From: a virus
Direction: 5' to 3' (one strand)
Length of the DNA: 44,730 nucleotides
Virus record (IMG/VR): IMGVR_UViG_3300021518_000002
Position 1 is the first letter of the stretch, and every line of letters begins with the position of its first letter. Shown one piece after another: positions 1-42,190 of this stretch. Below the pieces are notes generated by a model that had not been told where the DNA came from, did no database searches, and saw nothing but the letters and a program-made list of their open reading frames with translations. Position numbers and translations under genes: made by a program.

Positions 1-193
1 CAGTGGTGATTGGAACAGTGGTGATTCCAACAGTGGTAATCGCAACAGTGGTGATTGGAACAGTGGTCATTCCAACAGTGGTGATTGGAACAGTGGTGAT
101 TGGAACAGTGGTCATTCCAACAGTGGTCATTCCAACAGTGGTAATCGCAACAGTGGTGATTGGAACAAATCTTCTTTCAATTCAGGTTGCTTC
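1..193 (+). repeat. Tandem 15-nt coding repeats AACAGTGGTNNNNNN (second half of the array)
   Basis: Eleven near-identical 15-nt units run to position 163 (encoding NSGDW, NSGDS, NSGNR, NSGHS), followed by two degenerate units at 164-193. Confidence 0.9.
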
Positions 194-520
194 AATACAG
201 AGCAACATAAGTTGAAATTCTTTGATGAAGAAACTGATATGACATTTGAACAATGGAGAAGATCAGATGCATGTTATCTTCTGAATCAGATTAATTTCAG
301 ACCTACTGAATGGATTTATGAAGAAGATATGACAGATGAAGAAAAGGAACAATACCCTGATTATGAAACAACTGGTGGTTATTTGAAAGAGCGTGATAAT
401 TCAAATGCTGCTATTGAATGGTGGAACGATCTTTCAGAAATTAGAAGAAATATCATCAAGAATATACCAAATTTTGATGCTGATAAATTCTATGAAATTA
501 CTGGAATCAAGGTGATTTAA
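1..520 (+). CDS. 3' part of a wrap-around gene: N-S-G-x-x pentapeptide-like repeat protein, repeat array plus C-terminal domain (continues from 44288..44730)
   Basis: Frame 2 is open from base 2 to the TAA at 518-520. It translates SGDWNSGDSNSGNRNSGDW..., then KFFDEETDMTFEQWRRSD... Window length is divisible by 3, so the final AA plus the first C form an in-frame AAC codon. The TTG start at 212 in the ORF track is a window-edge artefact. Confidence 0.8.
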   Translation, partial: SGDWNSGDSNSGNRNSGDWNSGHSNSGDWNSGDWNSGHSNSGHSNSGNRNSGDWNKSSFNSGCFNTEQHKLKFFDEETDMTFEQWRRSDACYLLNQINFRPTEWIYEEDMTDEEKEQYPDYETTGGYLKERDNSNAAIEWWNDLSEIRRNIIKNIPNFDADKFYEITGIKVI

Positions 521-1866
521 TGATTCAGCTATTCCCCCATCAAGAACAAGCACTGGAACAAACAAAGAATTTTAATAGAGTCGCTTATTACTTGGACATG
601 GGTCTTGGTAAAACATTCGTTGGTTCGGAAAAGATGATACAGCTTGGAACTGACTTGAATATCTTGGTTTGTCAAAAATCATTACTTGACACATGGATTG
701 ATCACTTGAAAAAGTATTATCCAAATTATGAAGTCATTGATATGACGGTTCAAGCTTCATCTAAATATTACTTGGATAATAAAGACCAATTTGAAAAATG
801 CATCCTGGTTGTTAATTATGATTTGTTGTTCAGAAGAAAGTTCTTTCTTCACCTGGAACATTACACTTTGATGCTTGATGAAAGTTCAATGGTTCAAAAT
901 GAATCAGCAAAAAGAACCAAATTTATTCTTCAAATGAAACCTGATAATGTGATTCTTCTTTCAGGAACACCAACATCAGGTAAGTATGAAAATCTTTGGT
1001 CACAGATTCATCTTCTTGGTTGGAAGATAAGCAAAGACCTTTATAACAAACAATATGTGAATTGGAAGAAGATTGAAGTCGGTGGTTTTCCTATGAAAAT
1101 AGTGGACAAGGATGAACCTTATAAAAATGTCGATAGGTTGAAGCAAAAGATGCGTGATCATGGAGCAATATTCATGAAAACAGATGAATGCTTTGAACTT
1201 CCTGAACAAACGTTCATTCCAATTGATATTAGCACTACTAGGGAATACTGGAAGTTCCAAAAGAATTCACTCATCACTTTTGATACTTTGAACCTTACTG
1301 AATTCAAGGATGACAGTGATTACTATGGAACGGATGTAACACCAAGGGTTGAATTAATCGGTGATACGACATTAACCAAGCGTTTGTATTCAAGGATGCT
1401 TTGCGGTCATTACAACTGGAATAAGATAAAGGCTTTTGAAGATTTGGTTTCCAGTACAAATGATAGATTGATAGTTTTTTATAACTTCAATGAAGAATTG
1501 CAATCTTTGAAGAAAATTGCAGAAAAATTTAAAAGACCTATTTCAGAAGTAAATGGACAAACGAAAGACCTTGCAAACTATGAAACAGAAGATAATTCTA
1601 TTACTTTCATTCAATATCAGGCAGGTGCAATGGGATTAAATCTTCAAAAGGCGAACAAAATTATTTATTTCACTTTGACGGAAAAAAGTGAACTCTTTGA
1701 ACAATCCAAGAAGCGGATTCACAGAATCGGTCAAAGTAAACCTTGTTTCTACTATTTGATGGTATGCAAGGGAAGCGTGGAAGAAGATATTCTTCAAACT
1801 TTGGAAATGCGGAAAGATTACACTGATGAATTATTTATTGATTATGAAAGGAAGGTTGAAAAATGA
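520..1866 (+). CDS. SNF2/RAD54-family helicase
   Basis: The ATG overlaps the previous stop (TAATG) and AAGGTGA lies upstream. Motifs: GLGKT (Walker A), LDESS (motif II), SGTP, QAGAMGLNLQ, HRIGQ. Confidence 0.9.
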   Translation: MIQLFPHQEQALEQTKNFNRVAYYLDMGLGKTFVGSEKMIQLGTDLNILVCQKSLLDTWIDHLKKYYPNYEVIDMTVQASSKYYLDNKDQFEKCILVVNYDLLFRRKFFLHLEHYTLMLDESSMVQNESAKRTKFILQMKPDNVILLSGTPTSGKYENLWSQIHLLGWKISKDLYNKQYVNWKKIEVGGFPMKIVDKDEPYKNVDRLKQKMRDHGAIFMKTDECFELPEQTFIPIDISTTREYWKFQKNSLITFDTLNLTEFKDDSDYYGTDVTPRVELIGDTTLTKRLYSRMLCGHYNWNKIKAFEDLVSSTNDRLIVFYNFNEELQSLKKIAEKFKRPISEVNGQTKDLANYETEDNSITFIQYQAGAMGLNLQKANKIIYFTLTEKSELFEQSKKRIHRIGQSKPCFYYLMVCKGSVEEDILQTLEMRKDYTDELFIDYERKVEK

Positions 1867-2186
1867 GTAACCAAACAGAAGTTCAAGTTTTTGAAAATCA
1901 TTATTTACAAGTATTTAAACAACTGTCAGAAATCACAAAAACAAAAAAGCAATTGGACGAACAAGAAAAAAAGGTTAAAGCAGACCTTGAAAAAGCAATG
2001 GACGAACATGAAATTAAATCCATTGATAATCAGTTCTTGAAGATTACTAGGGTTGCAGCTTCTTCATCAACTTCCATTGACTTAAAAGCACTGGAAGAAA
2101 AAGAACCTAAATTGCATCAGGAATTACTTGAAGATTACCCAAAGGTTACAAATCGAAAAGCATATTTAACCTTCAAGGTGAAGTAA
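1863..2186 (+). CDS. Hypothetical coiled-coil protein of the replication module
   Basis: ATGA start/stop overlap with the helicase gene gives tight operon packing. No motif recognised. Confidence 0.6.
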   Translation: MSNQTEVQVFENHYLQVFKQLSEITKTKKQLDEQEKKVKADLEKAMDEHEIKSIDNQFLKITRVAASSSTSIDLKALEEKEPKLHQELLEDYPKVTNRKAYLTFKVK

Positions 2187-2602
2187 TGGCAGCAGAAAAA
2201 CAATTTGAAGGAAAAATAAAGAAATACCTTCATTCTATCGGGGTTTACCAGGCAGGTACACCATCACATCAAATGCATACTGATCAGATAGGATGGTTCA
2301 CTAAGATTTGGGGTGGAGGTTATCAGAAAAGCGGTATTCCTGACTTAATCCTTTGCGTGAATGGCTTCTTCATTACAGTGGAGATAAAAGCACCTAATGG
2401 GAAAGCTTCCGCACTTCAAAAGATGAATACAGCACGAATTAATAAGTCAAACGGAATTAGCATGATTCTTTACCCTGATGGATTTGAAAACTTCAAAAAG
2501 ATAATGGAAGGGGTGATAGGGTGCAGTTCTCACATTCAAGAGTTGACCTTCATAAAAAATGCTCATTCAGGTACAAGCTGCGATATATTGACAAGTTATT
2601 GA
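2186..2602 (+). CDS. VRR-NUC domain nuclease
   Basis: TAATG coupling to the upstream gene. GIPDLIL ... VEIKAPNGK matches the D..ExK core of VRR-NUC / PD-(D/E)XK enzymes. Confidence 0.75.
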   Translation: MAAEKQFEGKIKKYLHSIGVYQAGTPSHQMHTDQIGWFTKIWGGGYQKSGIPDLILCVNGFFITVEIKAPNGKASALQKMNTARINKSNGISMILYPDGFENFKKIMEGVIGCSSHIQELTFIKNAHSGTSCDILTSY

Positions 2603-4395
2603 CCTTACCACCTGATAATGCAGATCATCCTTTAATCATTGGAACAGCAATGCATACAGGTCTTGAAAAGGGTGTTGAAGTAGCAGTCAAAGAATATCTT
2701 ATGTCTTATCCAATTATTACTGATAGGCATATTGAAGAAGTCATGAAATTAAGGAATGTCATACCAAAGGCAGCAAAAATGATTCCACAAGGTGAATTTG
2801 AAGTGAAGATTGAAGATGAAGATTTCATTGGATATATTGACCTTCTTGCACCTGCAACAGTATTTGAACGTGAAGTGGAAGTTCCAAATCAGTATGACCT
2901 TTATGACTTTAAATATTCCAATAATGTTTCGAATTATAAAAAGTCACAACAGCTTCATTTGTATAAATACTTTTGGGAAAAACAGAATCCAGGTAAGACC
3001 ATCAGGGATATGTACTTTCTGTTTGTTCCTAAAACAAGTATTCGACAAAAGAAAACAGAAGATTTATTCCAGTTCAGACAAAGACTTGAAAGCGAATTGG
3101 ACAAGCTTGAACCAAAACTGGTCAAGATTGAATATGATCCTTCAATGGTCATTGAATACATGCTTGATGTTAAAAGTGTACTGGAAGCAACTGAATTCCC
3201 TAAAAATGAAAGTTACCTTTGTAACTTTTGCGAATACCAAAAATATTGCGTTGAAGGAGAAGATTATATGTTATTACCTAAAAATGAAAGACGTAACATT
3301 GAAAAAATTGATAAGAAAGTTATTTGGATGTATGGTTCACCATTCAGTGGAAAAACAACCTTTGCAAATAATTTCCCTGATCCATTAATGCTGAATACAG
3401 ATGGAAACATTAAGTTTGTAGATGCACCTTATATTTCCATCAAAGACCAGGTTTCTGTTGAAGGTCGAATGACAAAAAGAACACTTGCATGGGCAGCATT
3501 CAAGGATGTAATAGCAGAACTTGAAAAGAAACAAAATGACTTCAAAACTATCATTGTTGACCTACTTGAAGATACCTATGAATATTGCAGATTGTACATG
3601 TATGACCAAATGGGAATCACGCATGAATCAGATGATAGTTTCAGAGCTTGGGATAAAGTGAGAACTGAATTTCTATCAACCTTGAAAAAACTGATGAACC
3701 TGGACTATGAAAATATCATTCTCATTTCACATGAAGATTTGTCCAAGGACATTACTAAAAAAGGCGGTGACAAGATCACTGCAATCAAACCCAACCTACA
3801 AGAAAAAACAGCAAATAAAGTTGCAGGTATGGTGGATATTGTTGCAAGGGTTATTGCTGATGGTGAGGTTAGAACCCTTTCATTCAAAACAAATGAAGTT
3901 GTTTTTGGTGGTGGAAGATTAACAACATCCATCAATGAAATTCCACTTGATTATGATGAATTCCTAATTGTTTATGAAGAAGCAAATAAAAATGCAGTTG
4001 AAAAAATGAAAGGTAAATCAACTAAAACTGAAAAGGGTGCTGATTCAGCTTCAACTAAGTCCACTGGTGGGCGAAAAGGTAGAACCAAGAAGGAAACATC
4101 CCAAAAGGATGAAGAACCTTCTACAAGTGAAAATGAAGCTTCTGATAGTGATGTTGAACCAACCAAAGAACCTGTTAATGAAGCTGATCAAGTAGAAGAA
4201 ACTGAATCAGATGAAGAAAATGTACAAGAAGATATTCAAGAAGATGACCTTCCTGAAGAAATGCAGGAAGAAGAAAAACCAAAAACAAGAACTCGTTCAA
4301 GAAAGTCCAGGGATGAAGTGAAGGAAGAAACTTCTGCTGAACCTGAACAACAGGAAGAAGCACCAAAAAGAACGAGAAGAAAAAGAGGTGAATAA
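2521..4395 (+). CDS. Fusion protein: Cas4/RecB-like PD-(D/E)XK exonuclease with Cys cluster, Sak4-like AAA_24 ATPase, and a long E/K/S-rich disordered tail
   Basis: GTG start behind GGAAGGGGTGA. N-terminal FSHSRV...C, then IDLL, DFK and QLHLY nuclease motifs and CNFCEYQKYC (C-x2-C-x5-C). Then GSPFSGKTT Walker A, IIVDLLED Walker B and ILISHE. The last ~130 aa are low complexity. Confidence 0.8.
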   Translation: MQFSHSRVDLHKKCSFRYKLRYIDKLLTLPPDNADHPLIIGTAMHTGLEKGVEVAVKEYLMSYPIITDRHIEEVMKLRNVIPKAAKMIPQGEFEVKIEDEDFIGYIDLLAPATVFEREVEVPNQYDLYDFKYSNNVSNYKKSQQLHLYKYFWEKQNPGKTIRDMYFLFVPKTSIRQKKTEDLFQFRQRLESELDKLEPKLVKIEYDPSMVIEYMLDVKSVLEATEFPKNESYLCNFCEYQKYCVEGEDYMLLPKNERRNIEKIDKKVIWMYGSPFSGKTTFANNFPDPLMLNTDGNIKFVDAPYISIKDQVSVEGRMTKRTLAWAAFKDVIAELEKKQNDFKTIIVDLLEDTYEYCRLYMYDQMGITHESDDSFRAWDKVRTEFLSTLKKLMNLDYENIILISHEDLSKDITKKGGDKITAIKPNLQEKTANKVAGMVDIVARVIADGEVRTLSFKTNEVVFGGGRLTTSINEIPLDYDEFLIVYEEANKNAVEKMKGKSTKTEKGADSASTKSTGGRKGRTKKETSQKDEEPSTSENEASDSDVEPTKEPVNEADQVEETESDEENVQEDIQEDDLPEEMQEEEKPKTRTRSRKSRDEVKEETSAEPEQQEEAPKRTRRKRGE

Positions 4396-4397
4396 TA

Positions 4398-4733
4398 ATG
4401 AATACTGAATTGATCGCTAAAATTTGTCACAACGTCAATAAGGCATATTGTGAAAGTCAAAATGATTTCTCACAGCCAACTTGGGAAGATGCACCTGAAT
4501 GGCAAAAATCCAGTGCAATTAATGGTGTTCAGTACCATTTAGAAAATGATGTTACACCTGAAATGTCACATGAAAACTGGTTGAAACAGAAACTTGAAGA
4601 AGGATGGGTTTATGGTAAAGAAAAGAACCCTGAATTGAAAACACACCCTTGCATCAAAAGATATGATGAACTTCCAAAGTTCCAACGGGTAAAGGATGCT
4701 TTATTCAAGGCAGTTGTAGATTCATTTAAGTAA
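4398..4733 (+). CDS. RyR-domain-like protein
   Basis: HENWLKQKLEEGWVYGKEKNPELKTHPCIKRYDELP resembles the phage/bacterial RyR repeat signature (HE.W...GW.YG....K.HP.L..Y.EL). Confidence 0.55.
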   Translation: MNTELIAKICHNVNKAYCESQNDFSQPTWEDAPEWQKSSAINGVQYHLENDVTPEMSHENWLKQKLEEGWVYGKEKNPELKTHPCIKRYDELPKFQRVKDALFKAVVDSFK

Positions 4734-4745
4734 TATTCATTCAAT

Positions 4746-4780
4746 GTTCACTTATTCAATTCATTTTTGAATAAGTGAAC
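4746..4780 (+). terminator. Perfect 14-bp stem hairpin (terminator-like)
   Basis: GTTCACTTATTCAA (4746-4759) pairs with TTGAATAAGTGAAC (4767-4780). An A-run, not a T-run, follows on the + strand, so terminator function is uncertain. Confidence 0.4.
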
Positions 4781-4825
4781 TAAAATAAAAAATTCAAAAA
4801 ACTGAAAGGTAAAAGGTGAATTAAC

Positions 4826-5281
4826 ATGGCAAATATTTGGGATAAATTTGATAACGCAATTGATACAGAAGGTCTTGCAGGTGATGTAAAAGAAGCAGCG
4901 GAAAATGGAACTGGTAGTTTCAAAGAAGTTCCACATGGTGAATATGAAGTTTCAGTCAACAAAATGGAATTAGTTGCTTCCAAAAAAGGTGATCCAATGG
5001 TTTCAATTTGGTTCAAAGTTGTTAGCGGTGATTTTAAGGGCAGCTTGATTTTCTTCAATCAGGTAATCACACAAGGCTTCCAAATTCACATTGTAAATGA
5101 ACTGCTTAGATCAATGGACACTGAACAAAATATTGAATTCCAAACGTACAAGCAGTACGGAAACCTATTGATGGATGTTATGGAAGAAATTGATGGTGAA
5201 CTTGAATTTGGTCTGAAATATGCAAAAGGTAAAAAGGATTTCAGCACATACGAAATTACTGATGTTTTTGAAATTGCTTAA
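4826..5281 (+). CDS. DUF669-like protein (putative ssDNA-binding partner of the Sak4-type ATPase)
   Basis: RBS AAAAGGTGA. PHGEYEVSVNKMELVASKKGDPMVSIWFKV is typical of DUF669 proteins that accompany AAA_24 genes. Confidence 0.55.
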   Translation: MANIWDKFDNAIDTEGLAGDVKEAAENGTGSFKEVPHGEYEVSVNKMELVASKKGDPMVSIWFKVVSGDFKGSLIFFNQVITQGFQIHIVNELLRSMDTEQNIEFQTYKQYGNLLMDVMEEIDGELEFGLKYAKGKKDFSTYEITDVFEIA

Positions 5282-5290
5282 TTAAAAATT

Positions 5291-5318
5291 GAAGGGAAGT
5301 ATTACACTTCCCTTCTTC
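5291..5318 (+). terminator. Hairpin after the DUF669-like gene
   Basis: GAAGGGAAGT (5291-5300) pairs with ACTTCCCTTC (5306-5315), followed by TTC; the T tract is weak. Confidence 0.4.
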
Positions 5319-5341
5319 ATAAAAGCATTGGAGGGAATAAA

Positions 5342-5734
5342 ATGGATGCTTTAGATGAACTTTTGAAAGTAAAAAAGGCTGAAATAAAAGTCTTGAAGGT
5401 TAGTCTTAAAAAACTAATAAAAGAAAAAGCAGATGTTCAATATATCAATAAGGTTGAACGTCAAATTAATTCACTTGAATGGTATGTTCATAGATTTAGA
5501 AAGGCTGCAATGCATCCAGTCAAGATTGATGGAATTGTCATTAATTTTAAATTGTATGAACGCTTCATCAAAAAGTTAAAGGGATTTAACATTTCCCAAG
5601 AAGTGAAAGACGGTCAGTTAGTCATTAACTATTCAAACAAGGTCAGTAAAGGAATGCTAACACTTGAAGATATAACAAGTCATTTCCCTGATGTTAGCAA
5701 GATTCAGGATGGTGAACTTTATGCTGTTTTATGA
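5342..5734 (+). CDS. Hypothetical protein
   Basis: RBS GGAGGGAATAAA before the ATG. 130-aa ORF in operon context with no recognised motif. Confidence 0.6.
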   Translation: MDALDELLKVKKAEIKVLKVSLKKLIKEKADVQYINKVERQINSLEWYVHRFRKAAMHPVKIDGIVINFKLYERFIKKLKGFNISQEVKDGQLVINYSNKVSKGMLTLEDITSHFPDVSKIQDGELYAVL

Positions 5735-7451
5735 CTTTGAGGTTTTTAAAGAAAATTGGATGGTTGTCATTATTGACATGATGAAGAAAAAAGAACATGT
5801 CATCATTAATGATCCTGATGAACTGGAAAGAGTTCATAAAGAAAATGTGAATGAAATATGGGTTGGTTTTAATTCCAGGCATTATGACCAATATATTTTC
5901 AAAGGTATTCTTTGTGGATTTGACCCTAAAAAAATAAATGATTACATCATTGTTAAAGGTAATCCAGGATGGAAATTTTCTTCATTACTTCGGAATGTGA
6001 AACTAATAAACTATGATGTTATGACCAACATTGATAGAGGATTAAAAACCTTTGAAGGGTTCATGGGGAATGACATAAGGGAATCAAGTGTTCCTTTCGA
6101 TATTGATAGAAAATTAACTGAAAAAGAGATTGAAGAAACGGTCAAATATTGTAGACATGATGTGCAACAAACAGTTGAAGTGTTCCTGGAACGGAAAGAT
6201 GACTTTGAAGCACACATGGGTTTAGTGAAAATTGCATGTGAAGGAAAACCATTGGACTTATTTCTTTTATCTAAAACGAAAGTTCAACTATCATCCATCA
6301 TACTAGATGCAAATAAAGTGGATCGTAACGATGAATTTAATATTGATTTTCCTTCCACAATGAAAATTGAAAAATATAAAGAAGTGGTTGACTGGTATGC
6401 CAACCCTGAAAACAGAAAATACAATATCAATCCTGATGATAAAAAGTCAAAGAAGAATCAACTGGATATTATGGTTGCAGGTGTTCCGCATGTCTTTGGA
6501 TGGGGCGGTGTTCATGGAGCAATAGACAAATATCATGGTGAAGGTTATTACCTGAACATGGATGTTGCTTCCCTATATCCATCACTGATGATTCAGTATG
6601 ATCTTGGTAGTAGAAATATGAAAGACCAAAAGAAATATGAAGAAATTTATCATCAACGATTGAAATATAAAGTAGAAAAGAACCCTTTAGATTTACCATT
6701 GAAACTTGTTCTGAATGGTACATATGGGGCAATGAAGGACAAAAACAATCAGTTGTTTGACCCAAGACAAGCAAATAGGGTTTGTGTATATGGTCAATTA
6801 TTATTGCTTGATTTAGTCGAAAAGCTTGAACCACATTGTCAGATTATCCAATCCAATACGGATGGTGTACTGATAAAAATGAACCGTTATGAAGATTATG
6901 ATTTGATTGATGATATTGCTTATGAGTGGGAACAAAGAACAGGCCTTGTTCTTGAATTTGAAGAATTCAGAAGGGTTTTCCAAAAGGATGTAAACAATTA
7001 TATTGTCATTGATGCAGACGGAAAATACAAATCCAAGGGTGGATATGTAAAGAAACTAAACAACTTGGATTATGACCTTCCAATTCTAAATAAGGCACTA
7101 ATCAATTATATGGTTCATGATATTCCAGTTGAACAAACGGTAAATCAATGCAATGAATTGAAAGAATTCCAACTGGTTTCAAAGATAAGCGGAAAATATA
7201 CAACCATTCTTCATGGTGATCAAGAAGTATTTGAAAAATGCATTAGAATATTTGCTTCAAAATTGGAATCTGATAAAGGTGTTGTAAAAGTTCATGCTAC
7301 AACGGGTAGACCTGCAAAAATACCTAATTCCCCTGAAAATTGCTTCATTTACAATGATGAAGTGAATGGGGTTAAAGTACCAAAGAAGTTGGATAAACAA
7401 TGGTACATTAATTTTGCATTGAAAAGATTGACTGATTTCGGTGTGGTGTAA
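5721..7451 (+). CDS. Compact family-B DNA polymerase with 3'-5' exonuclease domain
   Basis: Exo motifs: YDFEVF (DxE), NSRHYDQYIF, YCRHD. Polymerase motifs: DVASLYPSLM (DxxSLYPS), KLVLNGTYG (KxxxNxxYG), SNTDGV (xxDTDx-like). Start moved to the ATG at 5721 (MLFYDFE) behind AGGATGGTGA. Confidence 0.8.
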   Translation: MLFYDFEVFKENWMVVIIDMMKKKEHVIINDPDELERVHKENVNEIWVGFNSRHYDQYIFKGILCGFDPKKINDYIIVKGNPGWKFSSLLRNVKLINYDVMTNIDRGLKTFEGFMGNDIRESSVPFDIDRKLTEKEIEETVKYCRHDVQQTVEVFLERKDDFEAHMGLVKIACEGKPLDLFLLSKTKVQLSSIILDANKVDRNDEFNIDFPSTMKIEKYKEVVDWYANPENRKYNINPDDKKSKKNQLDIMVAGVPHVFGWGGVHGAIDKYHGEGYYLNMDVASLYPSLMIQYDLGSRNMKDQKKYEEIYHQRLKYKVEKNPLDLPLKLVLNGTYGAMKDKNNQLFDPRQANRVCVYGQLLLLDLVEKLEPHCQIIQSNTDGVLIKMNRYEDYDLIDDIAYEWEQRTGLVLEFEEFRRVFQKDVNNYIVIDADGKYKSKGGYVKKLNNLDYDLPILNKALINYMVHDIPVEQTVNQCNELKEFQLVSKISGKYTTILHGDQEVFEKCIRIFASKLESDKGVVKVHATTGRPAKIPNSPENCFIYNDEVNGVKVPKKLDKQWYINFALKRLTDFGVV

Positions 7452-7492: not shown

Positions 7493-9376
7493 TTGTTTTT
7501 CAAAGGATATGTTGAAACCAAAAATAAAAAATGCATAGAGGAATTTAAAGGTAGAACGGATTTAAAATCCTATGAACAAGTGCAATCACTGCCTGAATTT
7601 GCTGGAATATTAGCAACAGACACTATTCTGATTGACGTTGATGACTTTGAACAAAGTGAAATATTGTTCAAAATTGTTCAAGATATGCAGCTTCAATGTA
7701 GAGTGTATGAAACTACTAGGGGGAAGCACTTTCTGTTCAAAAATGAAGGTGTGGAACGGAATAGAACTAAGGCATCACTTGCACTTGGCATTAAATCAGA
7801 CATTAAACTTGGGAAAAGAAACTCTTATTCCATTTTAAAGTTTAAAAATAAAGAAAGAACCATTCTTTATGATGCTGTTGAGGGTGAAGATCCACAAGAA
7901 CTTCCAAAATGGTTGTTTCCTATAAAGACAAGTATGGATTTCCTGGATATGAATGCAGGTGACGGAAGAAATCAGGCATTGTTCAACTACATTTTAACTT
8001 TACAATCCAATGATTTTTCAGTGGATGAATCTAGGGAAACCATCCGATTAATAAATGAATATGTATTAAAAGAACCGTTATCAGAAGATGAAATTGAAGT
8101 GATCCTTAGGGATGATGCTTTCTCAAAGCCTATCTTTTTCAAGGGAAATACCTTCCTTTTCGATAAGTTTGCAGTGTTTTTAAAAAACAATCACCACATT
8201 ATAAGGATTAATAATCAGCTTCATTTATACAAAGATGGAATTTATGTAAGTGGACAGGCTGAAATTGAAGCTGAAATGATACGACATATTCCCCAATTGA
8301 ATAGAGCAAAAAGGGCAGAAGTCCTGGCATACCTGGACATATTAATTCGTGAAAATACACCTGCAACAGATGCAAATTGGATTGCCTTTAGGAATGGATT
8401 ATTAAATATTCATGATGATACCTTTATTCCATTTTCGCATGAACATATTATCACCAATAAAATTGATTGGGATTATAACCCTAATGCCTATTCAAAATTA
8501 ACTGATGATACTTTGAACAGAATTGCAGTTCATGATGAAAAAATAAGAATGTTGCTTGAAGAAATGGTTGGTTATACCATGTTCAGAAGAAATGAATTGG
8601 GTAAAGCATTCATTTTAACTGGTTCGGGTAGTAACGGAAAATCAACATTCCTGAATATGCTGAAAACCATGCTTGGAAGAAGAAATGTTTCGGCACTTGA
8701 TTTGAAAAAGTTAAATGATCGGTTCAGTACAGTCATGATTTTTGGAAAGCTTGCAAACATTGGTGACGATATTTCAGATGAATTTATTACGGATGCAGCA
8801 GACTTCAAAAAAATAGTTACTGGTGAAACCATAGATGCTGAACAAAAAGGTCAACCAAAGTTTGAATTTGAACCATATGTGAAACTATTATTTTCAGCAA
8901 ACAATATTCCTAGAATCGGGAAAGGAAGGGATTCATCAGCCATATTAAGAAGGCTGATAATCGTTCCATTCAATGCAAAGTTTAGTTCCAGTGATCCTGA
9001 TTATGTACCGTTCATTGGTGACAAGTTAAGAACACAGGAATCTATTGAATATCTTGTTCAACTTGGTATTCAAGGGTTAAAAAGAGTTCTTATTTCAAGA
9101 CAGTTCACTGAAAGTGAACAAGTTCAAAAAGAACTTGAAGAATATGAAGAAAACAACAATCCTATTCTTGGATTCTTTAAAGAGATTGATAAGGATGAAA
9201 TTGAAAATGAACCTACTAATCTAGTTTATAGAAAATATCAAGAATATTGTTTAGCTAATAGTTTACAAGCAATGTCCAACATTGTTTTCTCTAAAGAGGT
9301 TAAGAAGCACTTTAAATTTACAATTGTAGATAAAAGGGTTAATGGAAAAAAATCAAGGGTTTTTGTTTCAGAGTAA
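7493..9376 (+). CDS. Primase-helicase (prim-pol-like N-terminus plus D5/P4-type NTPase C-terminus)
   Basis: TTG start behind GGCGGTGA. The N-terminus has acidic D.D-type prim-pol character (ILIDVDD). The C-terminus has the Walker A GSGSNGKST, LANIGDD and IIVPF, as in phage/plasmid P4-family primases. Confidence 0.8.
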   Translation: MFFKGYVETKNKKCIEEFKGRTDLKSYEQVQSLPEFAGILATDTILIDVDDFEQSEILFKIVQDMQLQCRVYETTRGKHFLFKNEGVERNRTKASLALGIKSDIKLGKRNSYSILKFKNKERTILYDAVEGEDPQELPKWLFPIKTSMDFLDMNAGDGRNQALFNYILTLQSNDFSVDESRETIRLINEYVLKEPLSEDEIEVILRDDAFSKPIFFKGNTFLFDKFAVFLKNNHHIIRINNQLHLYKDGIYVSGQAEIEAEMIRHIPQLNRAKRAEVLAYLDILIRENTPATDANWIAFRNGLLNIHDDTFIPFSHEHIITNKIDWDYNPNAYSKLTDDTLNRIAVHDEKIRMLLEEMVGYTMFRRNELGKAFILTGSGSNGKSTFLNMLKTMLGRRNVSALDLKKLNDRFSTVMIFGKLANIGDDISDEFITDAADFKKIVTGETIDAEQKGQPKFEFEPYVKLLFSANNIPRIGKGRDSSAILRRLIIVPFNAKFSSSDPDYVPFIGDKLRTQESIEYLVQLGIQGLKRVLISRQFTESEQVQKELEEYEENNNPILGFFKEIDKDEIENEPTNLVYRKYQEYCLANSLQAMSNIVFSKEVKKHFKFTIVDKRVNGKKSRVFVSE

Positions 9377-9389: not shown

Positions 9390-10148
9390 TTGTTGAAATT
9401 ATTAAGTCTATTCAGTGGAATAGGTGCATTTGAAAAGGCACTGAATAACTTGAAAGTAAAATATGACTTAGTAAATTATTGTGAGTTTGACAAGTATGCT
9501 TCCAAGGCATATTCACTAATTCATAATGTACCTGAATCAAAGAACCTTGGTGACATTACCAAAGTAGATGAAACATCCCTTCCTAAAGGTATTGATTTAA
9601 TAACATATGGTTTCCCATGTCAAGATATATCTTTAGCAGGTCATCAAAAAGGTTTATTTAATGAAGATGGTACGAAAACAAGAAGTGGTTTATTCTTTGA
9701 TGCATTAAGAATTATCACACACACACACACACAACCAAAGATTGCTATTGCGGAGAATGTGAAGAATCTTACCAGTAAGAGATTTGAAAAACAATTCAAT
9801 ATAGTTTTAGATTCATTAGATCAGGCGGGTTATAACAATTATTATCAAATTCTGAATGCCAAAGATTATGGAATCCCGCAAAACAGGGAAAGGGTTTTTA
9901 TCATATCCATTAGGAAAGATATTGATAATAATATGTTTGAATTCCCTACACCTTTTGAACTTAAAAAGACCTTGAAAGATATGTTGGAAGATGAAGTTGA
10001 TGAAAGCTATTTCTTATCAGATGAAAAAATTAACAAGATAAGGTATAGCAACTTCAATCAAGAGAAAACACTCATTCAAGGGGGAGGGGTTTGTCAAACA
10101 TTGTTAGCAAGAGATTATAAAGACCCCAAATGTGTTGAGGTACTGTAA
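9390..10148 (+). CDS. DNA (cytosine-5)-methyltransferase, N-terminal ORF (motifs I-VIII plus part of the target-recognition region)
   Basis: Motifs: LFSGIGAF (motif I), GFPCQDIS (motif IV), ENVKNL (motif VI), QNRERVFII (motif VIII). The ORF ends in the variable region. Confidence 0.85.
   Translation: MLKLLSLFSGIGAFEKALNNLKVKYDLVNYCEFDKYASKAYSLIHNVPESKNLGDITKVDETSLPKGIDLITYGFPCQDISLAGHQKGLFNEDGTKTRSGLFFDALRIITHTHTQPKIAIAENVKNLTSKRFEKQFNIVLDSLDQAGYNNYYQILNAKDYGIPQNRERVFIISIRKDIDNNMFEFPTPFELKKTLKDMLEDEVDESYFLSDEKINKIRYSNFNQEKTLIQGGGVCQTLLARDYKDPKCVEVL
9716..9733 (+). repeat. (CA)9 dinucleotide tract inside the methyltransferase ORF
   Basis: CACACACACACACACACA encodes THTHTQ in the loop between motifs IV and VI. 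Confidence 0.95.
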
Positions 10149-10636
10149 TGAATAAAGACAAGAGAATAATACAGGAAGCGAACTTAAATCATTATGGAAA
10201 TGACCAAATGAACCGTGTATATGGAGTTGAGGGTATATCACCAACAATTAAAACGGTAACCGGGGGAGGACGTGAGGTGAAAATATTAATTAGAGAAGCA
10301 ACCAAGCAAGGTTATGCGATAGCTGAAACGGGTGATTCTATCAATCTTGAACATCCAAATTCAAATACTAGAAGGGGTAGGGTTGGAAAATCTGTTGCGC
10401 AAACTGTCACTACTTCCCCACAACAGGCGGTTATATTGAAAAATAGAGTTAGAAAAATGACACCAAAAGAGTATTTAAGATTAATGGGATTTTCAGATTC
10501 AGATATTGATATTTTGAATGAAAATGGTATTTCTAAAACACAACTTTATAAACAAGCAGGAAATTCAATAGTAGTTGATGTACTGGAAGAAATATTTTGT
10601 CAGATTTTCGATCAAGATAATGAAATTTGGGTGTGA
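10148..10636 (+). CDS. DNA (cytosine-5)-methyltransferase, C-terminal ORF (target-recognition region plus motifs IX-X)
   Basis: The ATG overlaps the upstream TAA (TAATG). Motifs: GISPTIKTVTGGG, TPKEYLRLMGF (motif IX), AGNSIVV (motif X). This frame is closed upstream by the TGA at 10136. Confidence 0.8.
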   Translation: MNKDKRIIQEANLNHYGNDQMNRVYGVEGISPTIKTVTGGGREVKILIREATKQGYAIAETGDSINLEHPNSNTRRGRVGKSVAQTVTTSPQQAVILKNRVRKMTPKEYLRLMGFSDSDIDILNENGISKTQLYKQAGNSIVVDVLEEIFCQIFDQDNEIWV

Positions 10637-10649
10637 AGGGGTGAAATCA

Positions 10650-10928
10650 TTGCAAGATAAAATACAAAAACATCAAGAAATTTGCAAAATACTTAATGAT
10701 GTTTATGAAAGGAAAAATCATGATTACGGTGATTCCTTTGCAAAGTTAAGAAATGAAATTCCTAATGCAATCCTGGTTAGGGTGTATGACAAATATAGCA
10801 GGCTGAAAACCTTACTTGATGGTAAGGAACAGCTTGTTATGGAAGAAAGTATTGATGATACCCTAATGGATTTAGCAAATTACTGTATTATGGAATTAGT
10901 CGAAAGGAAGATTACAAATGGAAATTAA
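10650..10928 (+). CDS. DUF1599-like (nucleotide-modification-associated domain 1) protein
   Basis: KNHDYGDSF ... DKYSRLKTL ... DTLMDLANYCIM. The start was chosen as the TTG at 10650 behind GAAGGGGTGA; the exact start is uncertain. Confidence 0.55.
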   Translation: MQDKIQKHQEICKILNDVYERKNHDYGDSFAKLRNEIPNAILVRVYDKYSRLKTLLDGKEQLVMEESIDDTLMDLANYCIMELVERKITNGN

Positions 10929-11256
10929 TGAATACCAGGCTTTAGCATTAAGAACATCTAATAGTGAAATGTCAGAGGATTTAATACTTAATGGAATCCT
11001 TGGGTTATGTGGTGAAACTGGTGAAGTATCTGATCATGTTAAGAAATCATTATTCCAAGGTCATGAATTCGATAAAGAACAGGTCATTAATGAACTCGGT
11101 GATGTTTGTTGGTATGTTGCAATATTAGCGAAAGGTCTAGATGTTGACCTGGAAACAGTTATGCAGAAAAACATAGATAAATTAAAGGAAAGATACCCTG
11201 ATGGTTTCGCTGCTGATAAATCTATAAACCGAAAGGGTGACTTAAATAATGACTGA
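10918..11256 (+). CDS. MazG-like nucleoside triphosphate pyrophosphohydrolase
   Basis: YQALALRT..., GLCGETGEV, ELGDVCWYVA and KNIDKLKERYP are the characteristic MazG helices. Confidence 0.8.
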   Translation: MEINEYQALALRTSNSEMSEDLILNGILGLCGETGEVSDHVKKSLFQGHEFDKEQVINELGDVCWYVAILAKGLDVDLETVMQKNIDKLKERYPDGFAADKSINRKGDLNND

Positions 11257-11948: not shown

Positions 11949-12226
11949 AACCAGTAAAAACAGAAACAAGCAATATTACTTTTGTCGGTGAAGGTTGTGA
12001 AGATTTACCTGGTACAAGATATTTATGTGAAGATGGTGTAACACCAGGAATTGAAACAGTTTGGGAATTAGATGAAAACGAAAAGAAACAGGTATTGGAA
12101 TCAGGTCGGATTTACTTATACATCATGGGAAGAACTGTTCAACCTTGTTTCCTTGCAACTGAATCAGCAGTAAGAATTGAAGAAGAAAAGGATGATGAAA
12201 ATGAAAACAACAGCACAACGAATTGA
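11945..12226 (+). CDS. Hypothetical protein
   Basis: ATGA overlap with the upstream gene; acidic C-terminal tail. Confidence 0.55.
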   Translation: MKPVKTETSNITFVGEGCEDLPGTRYLCEDGVTPGIETVWELDENEKKQVLESGRIYLYIMGRTVQPCFLATESAVRIEEEKDDENENNSTTN

Positions 12227-12773
12227 AGAATTTTATGGTTTAATGCACCCTTACATCAGTAAAGAATTTTATCAGTGGTTAATTCAAAACGGTTTCTTTA
12301 CTGCTCCTGCTTCACGAAAATATCATGGTGATTATATCGGTGGTCTTTATGATCATAGTCATGCGGTTACTGAATCACTGGTTGAAATGACTGAAAAGTT
12401 TGGTCTTAAATGGCAAAATGAACGGTCACCTTATATTGTTGGAATGCTGCATGACCTTTGTAAAATTGACCAATATGTAAAGGTTGTTGATGTTGAAGGT
12501 GTTCACTACTTTGGAATGGATGAACCACAGGGTGAAGAATTCCACTTTGAATATAGTAAAGATATTGTGATTCCTGGTCATGGTGACAAATCGGTGATGA
12601 TGCTTTCCCAACATATGCAATTAACAGAAGAAGAAATCCTTTGTGTTCGTTACCACATGGGTTCTTATGAAACAAAGGATTGGGAATTTTATGACAAGGC
12701 AATTAAGAAATATCAAACAGTTCTGTTCACTCATACTGCTGATATGCATGCATCCAAAGTGAAAGGAATCTGA
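12201..12773 (+). CDS. HD-domain phosphohydrolase
   Basis: KYHGDY...LYDHSHAV ... MLHDLCK ... GHGDKS is an H..HD..D metal-binding pattern. The start is uncertain (12177-12201). Confidence 0.7.
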   Translation: MKTTAQRIEEFYGLMHPYISKEFYQWLIQNGFFTAPASRKYHGDYIGGLYDHSHAVTESLVEMTEKFGLKWQNERSPYIVGMLHDLCKIDQYVKVVDVEGVHYFGMDEPQGEEFHFEYSKDIVIPGHGDKSVMMLSQHMQLTEEEILCVRYHMGSYETKDWEFYDKAIKKYQTVLFTHTADMHASKVKGI

Positions 12774-12976: not shown

Positions 12977-13018
12977 AAATCCGCTTCCCCAACCTGTTCA
13001 GCAGTAGTGGTGGGAAAC

Positions 13019-13300
13019 GGTGTTCAAGGTATGTTCATGATTGTTCATGGTGAATAAGTGACAACTTGAACGGTAACAAACACTTATAAACATTGGTTTC
13101 ATTCGTTATCTGTTCAAGTTGTTCAAGATTAATATAATTTATTATATAGATTAGTAAATTCATATATTAGTAATTTAATAAAAAAATATACTCTAAAAAT
13201 AAGTATATAGAGAATAAAATGCGGAACGTTGAACACTTTTCCTTCAAACCCTTGATACGACTAGTTTTAAAGGTGTTCCACTTAGTGTTCATGTTCAAGA
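13019..13300 (+). promoter_or_regulatory. Non-coding module A: cluster of TGTTCAAG/CTTGAACA boxes around an AT-rich core, upstream of the late regulator gene
   Basis: Perfect boxes at 13021, 13111, 13120 and 13292, with a reverse-oriented CTTGAAC at 13065. Variants (TGTTCAT, GTTGAAC, TGTTCCA) at 13032, 13042, 13228, 13274 and 13286. A 27-nt core at 13187-13213 recurs inverted at 38661-38689. Confidence 0.7.
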
Positions 13301-13358
13301 TGAAGTTCCGCATTTTAGATACATATGTATTTATTTTTATAGAAAGGTAGGTCTTTTC

Positions 13359-13940: not shown

Positions 13941-14038
13941 TTAATGCACTTTCCATGCAACATAGGCACTATTGATGTGCATTATATTAAATAGTAATCT
14001 GATAGCATAGATAAATTTAAATAGTGTATATTGAATTT

Positions 14039-14079
14039 GAGAATTCTAAGTCCACCTCCTACTTAGAATTCTCTTTTTC
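14039..14079 (+). terminator. Rho-independent terminator between the late regulator and terS
   Basis: GAGAATTCTAAGT (14039-14051) pairs with ACTTAGAATTCTC (14061-14073), followed by TTTTT. Confidence 0.7.
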
Positions 14080-14109
14080 TTTATATAAACTGAAAGGAAG
14101 GTGATGTGA

Positions 14110-34745: not shown

Positions 34746-34888
34746 CATAAAATTAATCTTAAAAATGTGAAACCTGATTGCCCTACCTCTTGGTAAAACA
34801 TAAAAAGAATTGAACTGTATTGGTAGACTTTGAACTTTCAAAGGTTGAAGATTCGGTTTGATAATGTGCATACAAAGGATAGTCATAA

Positions 34889-35956
34889 ATGAAAAGACAT
34901 GGGTATTTATACGAAAAAATTTATGATATGGACAACCTAATCCTTGCACACCAAAATGCTAAAAAGGGAAAAGGATGGTACAAAGAAGTTCAGATGGTTG
35001 ATGCAAACCCCGAATATTATTTTAGTTTGCTTCAAGAAATGCTGATTAATAAAACGTACCAAACTTCAAACTATGAAACATTCATCAAGAATGATAGCGG
35101 AAAAGAAAGAGAAATTTTTAAATTACCCTATTTCCCCGACAGAATATGTCAGTGGGCAATATTACAAATAATTGAACCGCTACTATTAAACAATTTCACC
35201 AAGGATACTTATTCAGCAATTCCAGGAAGGGGAATTCATCTTTGTTTCAATAGATTATGTGATGAAGTTCAGAATGATGTTCCAGGGTCACAGTATTGTT
35301 TAAAAATTGATGCAAAGAAGTTTTATCCATCTATCAACCACACAATCTTAAAAGAAAAATATAGAAGATTGTTCAAAGATTCTGACCTTCTTTGGTTACT
35401 GGATGAAATCATTGATTCTACACCTGGTGACACTGGAATTCCTATTGGAAATTATCTGTCACAATACAGTGGTAACTTTTATTTTTCAGAGTTTGACCAC
35501 TGGATAAAAGAAGTCAAACGTGTAAAGCATTATTTCAGATACATGGATGACATAGTAATCCTTGGAAACAACAAAGAAGCACTTCATCAACTTAGAAAAG
35601 AAATAGATGAATATTTCAAAACAAAATTGAAGTTAAAAATCAAAGAAAGTTGGCAAGTGTTCCCTACATTTGTGCGTGGAATTGATTATGTTGGATACAG
35701 GATATTTCTGAATTTTAAACTTCTTAGAAAATCCACTTGTAAGCAATTCAAGAAGAAAATGATTGCAATTAATAAAAAGCGGATAGAAGGAAAAGAACTA
35801 AATTATTCAGAATGGTGTTCAATCAATTCCTATAAGGGATGGTTGATTCATTGTGATAGTTATAGATTAATAGAAAAATATATTGAACCAATTCAACAAT
35901 TTGCAGATGATTATTATTTGCAAAACATTTATATGAAGGGTGGAATACCTGCATGA
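34889..35956 (+). CDS. DGR-type reverse transcriptase
   Basis: Motifs: PDRICQWAI, AIPGRGIHL, LKIDAKKFYPSINH, IPIGNYLSQ (DGR-typical (I/L)GxxxSQ), RYMDDIVILG (YxDD), GIDYVGYRI. Confidence 0.9.
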   Translation: MKRHGYLYEKIYDMDNLILAHQNAKKGKGWYKEVQMVDANPEYYFSLLQEMLINKTYQTSNYETFIKNDSGKEREIFKLPYFPDRICQWAILQIIEPLLLNNFTKDTYSAIPGRGIHLCFNRLCDEVQNDVPGSQYCLKIDAKKFYPSINHTILKEKYRRLFKDSDLLWLLDEIIDSTPGDTGIPIGNYLSQYSGNFYFSEFDHWIKEVKRVKHYFRYMDDIVILGNNKEALHQLRKEIDEYFKTKLKLKIKESWQVFPTFVRGIDYVGYRIFLNFKLLRKSTCKQFKKKMIAINKKRIEGKELNYSEWCSINSYKGWLIHCDSYRLIEKYIEPIQQFADDYYLQNIYMKGGIPA

Positions 35957-38081: not shown

Positions 38082-38534
38082 TTATAAGGAAACATTCATT
38101 GGTTGTACTTGTGGTTTTAGTTTACGGAACATATCAACAAATTGACCTGCACCAAGAAAATCATTTGTTCTAAGAACAATGGTCTTTTCTTCTTTTGAAA
38201 AATAATTAATGATAACAAAGTGCGTTAAATTCTTTTTCTCTTTTGTTTTAACCCTTCCACCTACCATTGCCCCGATTACCCCAAATGTTGCAGCACCAAT
38301 GACCATTCCAGGTAAAGACTGCTGAATGATCTTCTCCATTTCAACTTCATTTTTATAATCAATCAAAGTGATTTTTGACATATCAATTGTAAATTCTTGT
38401 TTTGTAGATGCAACGATTAAAGTTACATTTTCGGGTGTTAATTTAACAACTAAATCTGAACCTTCTGATACTGGTAATCCTTCGACTAAATTTACCCCAA
38501 TTACTTTTTGAGTGACCTTTTTTCTTCCAAACAT
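38082..38534 (-). CDS. Membrane protein of unknown function (lysogeny-region moron; glycine-zipper TM helix)
   Basis: PGMVIGAATFGVIGAMVGG is a central TM helix. The start was placed at MFGRKK (38534) behind AGGAAAGGTGA; the track start at 38573 lies in a CTTGAACA box. Confidence 0.6.
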   Translation of the reverse strand: MFGRKKVTQKVIGVNLVEGLPVSEGSDLVVKLTPENVTLIVASTKQEFTIDMSKITLIDYKNEVEMEKIIQQSLPGMVIGAATFGVIGAMVGGRVKTKEKKNLTHFVIINYFSKEEKTIVLRTNDFLGAGQFVDMFRKLKPQVQPMNVSL

Positions 38535-38564
38535 GGCTTTCACCTTTCCTTTTTCATATTTTAC

Positions 38565-38860
38565 CTTGAACATGGAACATTACCTTGAACAGACTAAAAC
38601 CTTGATTTATCAATGGTTTGACCATGAATAATGTTATAAGTGTTCAAGGTTCAAGATGACTCTCTATATATACTTATTTTTAGAGTATATTATTATATGT
38701 TTCTATAATAACTTTATTTTTACTAATTCACATAATAATTATTAACTATCTTGAACAAATTGAACAGATATTAAACAAACTTAGTAACCATAGGTATTTG
38801 AATCTGTTCAAGGTGTATTGTTTTCATCTTGAACCATATTGAACACATCTTGAACCACCC
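38565..38860 (-). promoter_or_regulatory. Non-coding module B: inverted paralogue of module A (TGTTCAAG/CTTGAACA boxes plus AT-rich core)
   Basis: Boxes at 38565, 38584, 38641, 38649, 38750, 38760, 38805, 38828, 38839 and 38849. 38661-38689 is the reverse complement of 13187-13213 with a 2-nt insertion. 38748-38769 is the reverse complement of 13108-13129 with 1 mismatch. Confidence 0.7.
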
Positions 38861-38910
38861 CTTAATGGATATATTTCTACACTTGGTTAAAAAGTCCTTT
38901 ATTTTTCCCT

Positions 38911-38938
38911 GTCATAAATCGGTCATACCGGTCATACC
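38911..38938 (+). promoter_or_regulatory. Three direct GTCATA(CC) repeats upstream of the first RHH-like gene
   Basis: GTCATAAATC, GTCATACCG and GTCATACCT begin at 38911, 38922 and 38931. A fourth GTCATACC lies at 39171-39178. Confidence 0.5.
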
Positions 38939-38958
38939 TTGTTATCAGGAGGTGCAAA

Positions 38959-39171
38959 ATGAGTGAAAACAAGGTAAGAAAAACTATTTCACTAAATCGA
39001 ACTAATCCTGATGATCTAAAAATAATAAATAAAATTGAACAGCCTGATTTTAATTTTAATGAATTTTCAAGAGAAGCAATGTTGGAAAAAATTCAAAGGG
39101 AAGAAAAAACCAAATTTAAAGTTGTCCAGGAACGAACAAAAGAAGGAGGTATTAAAATAGTCGTGGGGTAG
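38959..39171 (+). CDS. Small ribbon-helix-helix-like protein
   Basis: RBS CAGGAGGTG. The N-terminus KVRKTISLNRTNPDDLKII resembles the RHH beta-strand plus helix. Confidence 0.5.
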   Translation: MSENKVRKTISLNRTNPDDLKIINKIEQPDFNFNEFSREAMLEKIQREEKTKFKVVQERTKEGGIKIVVG

Positions 39172-39274
39172 TCATACCGAACATGCGACCCCCTCCCTCT
39201 TAACCCCTTTTGTTACATTGTTACACGTTTGACATTGGTAATTGTCATGACAAATGGAAAGGGGATTTTTTAAG

Positions 39275-42156: not shown

Positions 42157-42190
42157 TTTCTCACCTCCTGTAATTAATATTATAGTAAAA

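Follow-up and report, generated by a model that had tools for sequence, protein, structure and literature searches.

Why a phage should place the same non-coding array in front of two different genes, in opposite directions, is the question raised by IMG/VR record IMGVR_UViG_3300021518_000002. This 44,730-bp stretch (the window, meaning all of the DNA analyzed) is the complete, circularly permuted genome of a temperate Firmicutes phage with 33.7% G+C, and it carries two inverted modules of ~330 bp, A and B, which end at the starts of a sigma-like late-regulator gene and of a 150-aa membrane-protein gene, respectively. Our analysis suggests that each module is probably an origin-type nucleoprotein platform for the phage's own primase-helicase, and that the pair would thus represent twin iteron origins. 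We favor this reading because the modules have an anatomy like that of Staphylococcus aureus pathogenicity islands (SaPIs), because they are conserved in relatives, because the candidate initiator is homologous to known ones, and because a protein residue co-varies with a DNA base. An original prediction, made from the sequence without database searches, had offered three alternatives for the two regions, i.e., a shared operator array, iterons with AT-rich origins, or substrates for DNA inversion, and it is the second of these that is best supported by the SaPI-type anatomy, the PriRep/P4-alpha-type primase-helicase, and the covariation of boxes with a wing residue.

The modules themselves are as the original prediction had described them in nearly every respect. 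Aligned with MAFFT, the gap at 12977-13358 (+) and the reverse complement of 38574-38958 displayed 73% column identity over ~300 bp. Both local matches that had been noticed also hold, namely a 22-mer at 13108-13129 with one mismatch to the other copy and a 27-mer at 13187-13213 matched with a 2-nt insertion, while the longest stretch shared exactly is a 25-mer, AATATACTCTAAAAATAAGTATATA, from 13185. The border of the second gap had to be moved: the gap is real, but its true extent is 38535-38958, since the gene behind it starts at the ATG at 38534 after a good ribosome-binding site. About ten boxes had been seen around an AT-rich core, and we count 10 boxes of the form (T/G)GTTCAAG in A and 11 in B (1-2 mismatches allowed), around cores of 89% and 85% A+T, respectively, vs 66% for the genome. 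Their number is well above chance, with 15 occurrences of TGTTCAAG in the window compared to 3.6 ± 1.9 in shuffled sequences, none of 100 shuffles reaching 15. The boxes are also clustered nowhere else, as had been claimed: the two gaps hold 13 of the 35 GTTCAAG heptamers and are the densest 400-bp windows of the genome for this heptamer, and the motif ACTCTAAAAATAAGTATATA is confined genome-wide to the two modules.

Two further elements lie within this layout. An inner element, (C/G)AAA(G/C)CCTTGA(T/A)...AAGGGTTT (type AAAGCCTTGA(T/A)...AAGGGTTT), is found between outer and inner iterons at 13246-13262 and 38597-38620; as it is kept in relatives whatever their iteron type (L366, L374, L387, L363), it may be the site for a second, conserved factor. 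Copy A alone contains an inverted repeat, AAAATGCGGAAC / GTTCCGCATTTT, at 13218-13229 / 13305-13316, which encloses the module's leader part, degenerate iteron g included.

Boxes and architecture are both conserved in related phages, where, in IMG/VR, genes homologous to those for the late regulator and the membrane protein are preceded by the same module. An nhmmer profile built from seven module copies matched 34 of 126 viral loci, about two dozen of them distinct, along with three Firmicutes genomes (Chryseomicrobium palamuruense and two Clostridia metagenome-assembled genomes). The order of parts is constant: first come two to three direct boxes spaced 10-11 bp apart, then an inverted box, after ~40 bp a direct pair, the AT-rich core, an inverted pair, and after ~50 bp one to three direct boxes, followed by a ribosome-binding site with ATG. 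The core measures 77-103 bp in relatives and ends in a conserved motif of the type TATAcTCTAAAAATAAnnATATAGAG, and the counterpart of iterons g and h reads CCTTGAACCTTGAACC. The gene behind the module varies, and can encode a sigma-like, DUF1492-like, or Mor-like late regulator, the 150-aa membrane protein, or a ~100-aa protein. In most relatives the second copy is located inside the lysogeny module (repressor or immA, module, small gene, tyrosine integrase), and the 150-aa membrane-protein family is likewise encoded between repressor (or immA) and integrase.

At least ten genomes including the window have two copies, always mutually inverted. On the lysogeny side, each of the 17 copies has the strand opposite to that of the early genes, and all ~45 late-regulator-side copies on the early-gene (primase) strand, where the A-type module follows the primase-helicase gene at a distance of 0.3-7.5 kb in relatives. 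The two modules had been seen as bracketing the late operon. This is true, but it is half of the geometry: on the circular map the pair equally flanks the 18.9-kb lysogeny/early/replication region, including the replication genes at 520..7451 (+), and copy B of the relatives lies within the lysogeny module. The exact 23-mer core motif was not found in IMG/VR, GenBank phages searched with the window region and with a relative's module returned no meaningful match, and the closest proteins of cultured phages are only ~30% identical. A literature search by box sequence yielded irrelevant matches only.

The layout of the iterons matches that of known SaPI replication origins. These consist of 6-12 iterons with an AT-rich center flanked on each side by at least two iterons in opposite directions, and SaPI Rep proteins recognize these iterons through a winged helix in their C-terminal domain (PMC9371898). 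Modules A and B contain 10 and 11 short iterons, and their AT-rich centers are flanked by a direct pair (e, f) on one side and an inverted pair (g, h) on the other. In addition, two separated clusters of one iteron, as in a two-site replicator, are present in the window and in at least 9 related contigs.

The window also encodes a superfamily-3 helicase initiator with a C-terminal winged helix, the type of protein on which such origins depend, as indicated by Pfam, by the SaPI5 primase-helicase structure 7OLA, by Foldseek, and by AlphaFold2. This primase-helicase includes the Pfam domains D5_N, DUF5906 (the superfamily-3 helicase core), and Pox_D5. Its sole PDB relative by sequence is 7OLA (phmmer, E = 1.7e-38), the top Foldseek matches are 7OLA and 7OM0, and close homologues are labeled 'phage/plasmid primase, P4 family' at NCBI. 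In an AlphaFold2 model built on 37 homologues, residues 560-627 are confidently predicted (predicted local distance difference test, pLDDT, 83-89) and comprise a helix (596-607) and then a beta-hairpin (609-616/619-626); from these positions, R615 would end the first strand, and G618 would sit in the turn, of a winged-helix wing. Modeled as a single sequence, the C-terminal domain reached a pLDDT of 45, too poor for use. Homologues are abundant in public data (more than 8000 at E ≤ 1e-30), with close ones in prophages of Paenibacillus, Clostridium, Tepidibacter, Vallitalea, and Chryseomicrobium. A primase-helicase of this P4-alpha/SaPI5 PriRep type was present in every relative in which it was looked for, and the 10 longer viral contigs with a module that were checked (each over 36 kb) are all among the primase-homologue loci (72-83% identity).

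The evidence that ties this protein to the boxes comes from natural variation. Box sequences among relatives include GGTTCAAG, TGTTCAAG, AATTCAAG, AAGTCAAG, GGTACCAG, TGTTACAC, and TGTTACGG, and relatives without a GTTCAAG module have the same architecture built from other boxes (AATTCAAGAT, AAGTCAAGAT, GGTACCAGAT, TGTTACAC, TGTTACGG). The boxes of one genome all change together, second module included; for instance, the lysogeny-side copy of a TGTTACA-type phage (L263) has switched too, in a minimal form with three direct boxes, the AT core, and three inverted boxes. Such joint change points to one trans-acting specificity factor. Judged by overall identity, however, none of the widely shared protein families separates by box type (a 143-aa family among them), and the analysis was thus narrowed to a sub-clade of 12 phages with primases up to 90% identical and boxes starting with either GG or AA. 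Across 16 protein families, 4 of ~4700 aligned columns separate the GG-box from the AA-box phages, and two of these four are residues 615 and 618 of the primase-helicase.

When residue 615 was compared with the first base of the box in 51 typed phages, a simple rule held in 50 and across several distinct lineages: K occurs with G in 30 phages, R with T in 13, T with A in 5, and V with A in 2, the remaining phage, which has only six boxes, combining K with A. The window follows the rule, with R615 and boxes mostly starting with T. In a tree built from residues 1-540 of the primase-helicase, the R lineages are polyphyletic (window, L352, L369/370, L391/392, and the TGTTAC clades), and L352 (R, TGTT) is closely related to L359 (K, GGTT). 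By a rough estimate, the probability that several independent switches would agree in base by chance is of the order of 1e-4. Two predictions made from protein sequence alone were then checked on genomes new to the analysis, and both were confirmed: in P0060 (wing DKRV), 7 of 10 boxes counted by eye start with T and none with G, and in P0027 from Paenibacillus lentus (wing DKKI) the boxes are GGTTCAAG. They are also GGTTCAAG in the Chryseomicrobium prophage, with a wing of DKKV. Beyond residue 615, the wing motifs DKKxxGKK and xKRxGxKTxR differ with the iteron core (TTCAAG, TTACAC, TACCAG), a difference confounded with phylogeny. Overall, the covariation offers strong, if indirect, support for specific binding, in which the primase-helicase would read the boxes via its wing.

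Under the mechanism that we propose, the C-terminal winged helix would dock on the 8-bp boxes as iterons, hexamers would assemble at the oppositely directed iteron pairs flanking the 94-bp AT-rich core and melt it, and the primase-helicase would next unwind the DNA and prime synthesis by the phage DNA polymerase. The complex would be extended by the remaining iterons, namely the direct triplet, the single inverted box, and the two or three distal boxes, and the inverted pair of modules could function as two origins, or as an origin and an auxiliary site, like P4 ori/crr or SPP1 oriL/oriR.

Several observations weigh against this origin reading. We infer binding, melting, and origin firing, as well as promoter activity, from sequence alone. 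The covariation may in principle reflect linkage, as the primase C-terminus and module A are within a few kb of each other and could move together by recombination; against this objection, none of the genes between the primase-helicase and module A co-varies with the boxes. The location does not follow the SaPI rule of an origin directly downstream of the initiator gene, with A located 3.6 kb downstream and B ~14 kb off across the circular junction. There is no turn in cumulative GC skew at module A, but this measure is uninformative here as nearly all genes are on one strand, and outside its C-terminal domain, helicase core included, the protein is poorly modeled by AlphaFold2 (mean pLDDT 59). 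Finally, a plain origin would need neither the fixed gene-facing orientation in two different genomic contexts, nor distal boxes next to a ribosome-binding site, nor the conserved CTCTAAAAATAAG..TATA and inner AAAGCCTTGA motifs, features that suggest transcription as an additional, or even the main, function. It would not need the conserved -10-like hexamer before box g or a core motif confined to the modules either.

A transcriptional role could be accommodated within the origin reading if the core also held a promoter without a -35 element, in which case an initiator bound at g and h could gate the late regulator; we regard this as possible, at slightly less than even chances. Initiator occupancy or origin firing would then control late-regulator expression, a weaker claim than that of origin function. 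A promoter is needed near the copy B gene, which has no co-directional gene upstream. The 3' part of the core motif AATATACTCTAAAAATAAGTATATA resembles a -10 element, and a -10-like hexamer (TATAAT/TAATAT) is found 9-17 nt before box g, i.e., before the inner inverted boxes, in most copies. However, such hexamers are expected by chance at 89% A+T, a -35 element is not recognizable (only 1-4 of 6 positions match in nearly all copies), and sigma-70 consensus scans of both regions detected no gene-directed match in the cores and no more matches than in shuffled sequences. More tentative still is a fuller scheme in which an origin with a built-in promoter gates both the late activator and a lysogeny gene (with int as the next gene on that side in relatives), one origin fires while the other stalls a fork to switch replication to concatemers in an SPP1-like division of labor, and the one-residue rule sets replication-incompatibility groups among phages that are otherwise nearly identical.

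The same promoter-like features could instead belong to a pure transcriptional control region without origin function, in which the late activator and the gene on the lysogeny side would be controlled jointly from a promoter with several operator sites, occupied either by a dedicated phage regulator or by the primase-helicase serving solely as a transcription factor. In every case the module runs up to a ribosome-binding site with ATG, it precedes three families of late regulators (sigma-like, DUF1492-like, Mor-like) as well as genes of the lysogeny module, and even the minimal copy of L263 keeps its core oriented toward its gene. Yet the sharing of boxes by three late-regulator families also counts against this explanation, the candidate regulators fail, the CI operators are a different repeat, and the sole co-varying protein is a replication initiator associated with a layout equal to that of a SaPI origin. 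We consider this explanation unlikely overall. The operator array of the original prediction survives in part: one phage protein very probably binds both modules and a promoter in the core is plausible, but the binder would be the replication initiator and not one of the helix-turn-helix (HTH) proteins that had been listed.

Three such candidate binders were rejected. The 132-aa dual-HTH early protein (43798-44196) is common near modules, but homologues 69-70% identical to it are also encoded by phages whose boxes are TGTTACA and by phages that lack a GTTCAAG module on the lysogeny side, and its identity does not follow box type. For a CI-type repressor, the families differ among phages with identical boxes, and the divergent repressor/cro-like promoter region at 42157-42300 includes no boxes; it contains TGCGA/TCGCA half-sites, probably the CI operators and unrelated to TGTTCAAG. 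Autoregulation of the late-regulator gene was dismissed because sigma-like, DUF1492-like, and Mor-like regulators are all encoded behind the same boxes, and the 143-aa family shows no separation by box type.

A structured leader RNA (nut/put-type antitermination or an attenuator), with box hairpins gating read-through from the upstream operon, is very improbable. Lambda nutL and nutR offer a parallel for two inverted copies that would control int on one side and the late regulator on the other, most relatives have transcription units of the same direction on both sides of the module in either context, and the inverted boxes yield long predicted hairpins (z-scores of about -2 to -9). However, sense and antisense strands fold about equally well, RNAalifold on 19 units retains only the invariant box stem (covariation term -0.04), three direct boxes are located upstream of any plausible transcript, and there is no U-tract terminator. 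No Rfam family matched at the gathering threshold, the best sub-threshold match being PyrR (E = 0.57), and box changes follow a protein residue.

Slightly less probable again is a centromere-like role (parS/parC) or one in packaging (pac/cos accessory sites), with a partition protein or the small terminase as the binder. The short direct-repeat arrays that flank a promoter in plasmid R1 parC are similar to the modules, and copy A is ~0.8 kb upstream of terS, but no ParA/ParB/ParR-type gene was found among the window open reading frames scanned (part of the total), terS families differ while the boxes do not (Terminase_2 in the window and L407, GP3_package in L408), and box type follows the primase wing. 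Least credible is the proposal that the modules are inverted repeats through which recombination flips the intervening DNA: they are inverted and ~300 bp long, but are only 73% identical with a longest exact match of 25 bp, orientation is the same in all relatives examined (~45 A-type and 17 B-type copies), and the serine integrase beside the repressor is the only recombinase found.

Table 1 Positions in the window of the two modules, their parts, and the genes discussed.
Feature	Position	Strand	Remarks
Module A, full-length	12999..13331	+	nhmmer profile match, model positions 1-332; ends ~25 nt before late-regulator ATG
A iterons a, b, c, direct (TGTTCAAG, TGTTCATG, TGTTCATG)	13021-28, 13032-39, 13042-49	+	spacing 11 and 10 bp; triplet also in relatives
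A iteron d, inverted (CGTTCAAG on minus strand)	13065..13072	-	
A iterons e, f (two direct TGTTCAAG, 9 bp apart)	13111..13127	+	left core border
A AT-rich core, 89% A+T	13128..13221	.	presumed DNA-unwinding element; AATATACTCTAAAAATAAGTATATA at 13185-13209; conserved across relatives
A iterons g, h, inverted vs e, f	13222..13235	-	right core border; g degenerate (GCGGAAC); h = TGTTCAAC on minus strand, 13228-13235
A distal direct boxes (TGTTCCAC, TGTTCATG, TGTTCAAG)	13274..13299	+	just 5' of ribosome-binding site
Ribosome-binding site of late-regulator gene, AAAGGTAGG	13343-13351		
Module B, full-length, inverted vs A	38536..38859	-	nhmmer match, model positions 8-335; ends at ribosome-binding site and ATG (38534) of 150-aa gene
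B iterons a, b, c	38828..38856	-	GGTTCAAG 38849-56, TGTTCAAT 38838-45, GGTTCAAG 38828-35
B iteron d, inverted vs module orientation	38805..38812	+	
B iterons e, f (TGTTCAAT, TGTTCAAG)	38750..38766	-	core border
B AT-rich core, 85% A+T	38656..38749	.	same 25-mer as A, at 38667-38691 on minus strand
B iterons g, h	38641..38655	+	TGTTCAAG and GGTTCAAG on plus strand, 7-bp period; module orientation: CTTGAACCTTGAACA
B distal direct boxes (TGTTCAAG, TGTTCCAT, TGTTCAAG)	38565..38591	-	just before ribosome-binding site
Primase-helicase, P4-alpha / SaPI5 PriRep type	7493..9376	+	putative iteron-binding initiator
C-terminal winged helix, predicted	9170-9373	+	~residues 560-627
Wing residues	9335-9337, 9344-9346		R615, G618
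Sigma-like late regulator, 193 aa	13359..13940	+	weak Pfam Sigma70_r4_2 match; phrog_36 transcriptional regulator; start adjoins module A; terS next
150-aa protein gene	38082..38534	-	one glycine-zipper membrane segment; start adjoins module B
Serine integrase	39915-41450	-	beside repressor; sole recombinase found
S24-type CI repressor	41518-42156	-	
Early and replication region	42301 across window ends to 12976		
SNF2-type helicase	520-1866	+	PHROG match
Exonuclease/Sak4-like protein	2521-4395	+	PHROG match
DNA polymerase	5691-7451	+	PHROG match
terS	14110		Terminase_2 family; ~0.8 kb downstream of copy A
Amidase	37094		

Elsewhere in the window, the slot between the primase-helicase gene and module A is occupied by a split DNA methyltransferase, nucleotide-modification genes of the DUF1599 and MazG types, and an HD phosphohydrolase (9390-10636, 10575-11256, 12177-12773), and in relatives (L407) by anaerobic ribonucleotide reductase, ThyX, or radical-SAM genes instead. 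Two small genes, 38959-39171 (+) and 39254-39547 (+), diverge from module B and encode ribbon-helix-helix-like products (KVRKTISL..., NRVNLSL...). As their homologues were not found in other module-bearing loci, these proteins are not a general box binder, and the pair may be a window-specific moron or toxin-antitoxin pair. Between the late-regulator gene and terS, 14027-14085 contains a 25-nt inverted repeat, GAGAATTCTAAGT / ACTTAGAATTCTC, with a 9-nt loop and followed by TTTTTCTTT; it looks like an intrinsic terminator, missed by our scan because of its loop limit, and the late regulator might act at or across it.

A tandem array with a 15-bp period runs off both ends of the window (1-225 and 44555-44730) and corresponds to the coding repeat of a pentapeptide-repeat protein gene starting near 44290 (MEVVKGFKVFNPDW...), which indicates that the window is a circularly permuted complete genome cut within this gene; the gene type is also found in relatives (L001 start, L083, L396). 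An Rfam RT-17 RNA (76 bits) at 34779-34875 (+), directly 5' of a reverse-transcriptase gene at 34889-35956 (+; phrog_1423, E = 1.6e-122) that is kept in several relatives, probably forms a diversity-generating retroelement with it, and a 689-aa tail-fibre-like gene (32465-34534, +) is located just before the RNA. In the non-coding region 43311-43797, 5' of the HTH gene at 43798, two copies of TGTCGAA, the Spo0A-box consensus, and one of TGTCGTA occur in a repeated TTGTTGTCG(A/T)AA context, which hints at a spore-forming host and at sporulation control of early genes.

The scan of bacterial genomes recovered only 3 true modules, swamped by unrelated heptamer-repeat palindromes of GC-rich bacteria. 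These are tandem (GGTTCAA)n arrays and inverted ones of (TTGAACC)n, in many cases intergenic and separated by 45-100 bp, from Acidobacteriota, Planctomycetota, Desulfobacterota, Bacteroidota, and GC-rich phages (bacterial loci L127-L246; GC-rich viral contigs L009, L084, L069), with at least 120 matches vs ~7 by a rough chance estimate. No conserved neighbor gene was found for them, and they are not instances of the phage module.

Taken together, these results suggest a function for the two largest non-coding regions of a widespread, uncharacterized group of temperate Firmicutes phages, as well as a searchable origin signature for this group (inverted iteron pairs around an AT core carrying CTCTAAAAATAAG). 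Natural variation further suggests which wing residue of PriRep/P4-alpha-type proteins reads which iteron base, and could be used to design orthogonal origin-initiator pairs. An origin directly before a late-activator gene suggests a simple physical coupling of replication to late transcription, a long-standing question in phage biology; if true, late development and excision functions would be hard-wired to replication. While this kind of origin is already known, the inverted two-copy layout at the late-regulator gene and the covariation of one residue with one base have, to our knowledge, not been described for this phage group, and neither was found for it in a literature search.

Among known systems, the core origins of SV40 and papillomaviruses are also bound by a superfamily-3 helicase (large T antigen or E1) at inverted-paired short repeats beside an AT-rich tract. 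These origins overlap promoters, and initiator binding couples replication to the early-late switch. They belong to eukaryotic viruses and are recognized by another origin-binding fold, while in the phage the overlap with a promoter is a putative one.

Satellite phage P4 offers a parallel for two sites served by one initiator. Its ori and crr, studied by Ziegelin et al. in 1993 and 1995, are reportedly clusters of an octamer iteron, TGTTCACC, located kilobases apart and both bound by alpha. P4 needs both sites. However, crr is a pair of 120-bp direct repeats and lacks the layout of a full origin, whereas the phage sites are full paralogous copies in inverted orientation, and the iteron sequences (TGTTCA..) may be alike by coincidence. 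In P4 alpha, one polypeptide contains the primase, the superfamily-3 helicase, and a winged-helix domain at the C-terminus that binds the origin (PMC2777425), and the phage protein is predicted to unite these three parts as well, although the primase domain of P4 is DnaG-like.

Bacillus phage SPP1 is a ~44-kb Firmicutes siphovirus with two similar origins, each comprising direct repeats together with an AT-rich unwinding element, served by one phage initiator, one of the origins being intergenic beside moron genes (PMC6316719, PMC3485210). The second origin has been proposed to stall a fork and thereby trigger the theta-to-sigma switch to concatemer synthesis (PMC6316719). Unlike the primase-helicase, SPP1 gp38 needs a separate loader and a DnaB-type helicase along with host polymerases, and oriL is inside gene 38; we thus treat the resemblance as an analogy only and claim no protein homology.

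SaPIs likewise have a superfamily-3 helicase initiator (primase-fused in SaPI5) whose C-terminal winged helix reads short iterons, and their origin rule equals the arrangement of e, f and g, h. Yet SaPI iterons are 5-6 nt and the phage boxes 8-9 bp, and the SaPI origin is single and immediately follows rep, while the phage site is 3.6 kb off, duplicated in inverted orientation, and placed in each copy at the start of a gene. The phage pattern is also more elaborate (three direct, one inverted, two direct, core, two inverted, two to three direct), and it belongs to a 44.7-kb temperate phage with its own DNA polymerase rather than to a satellite.

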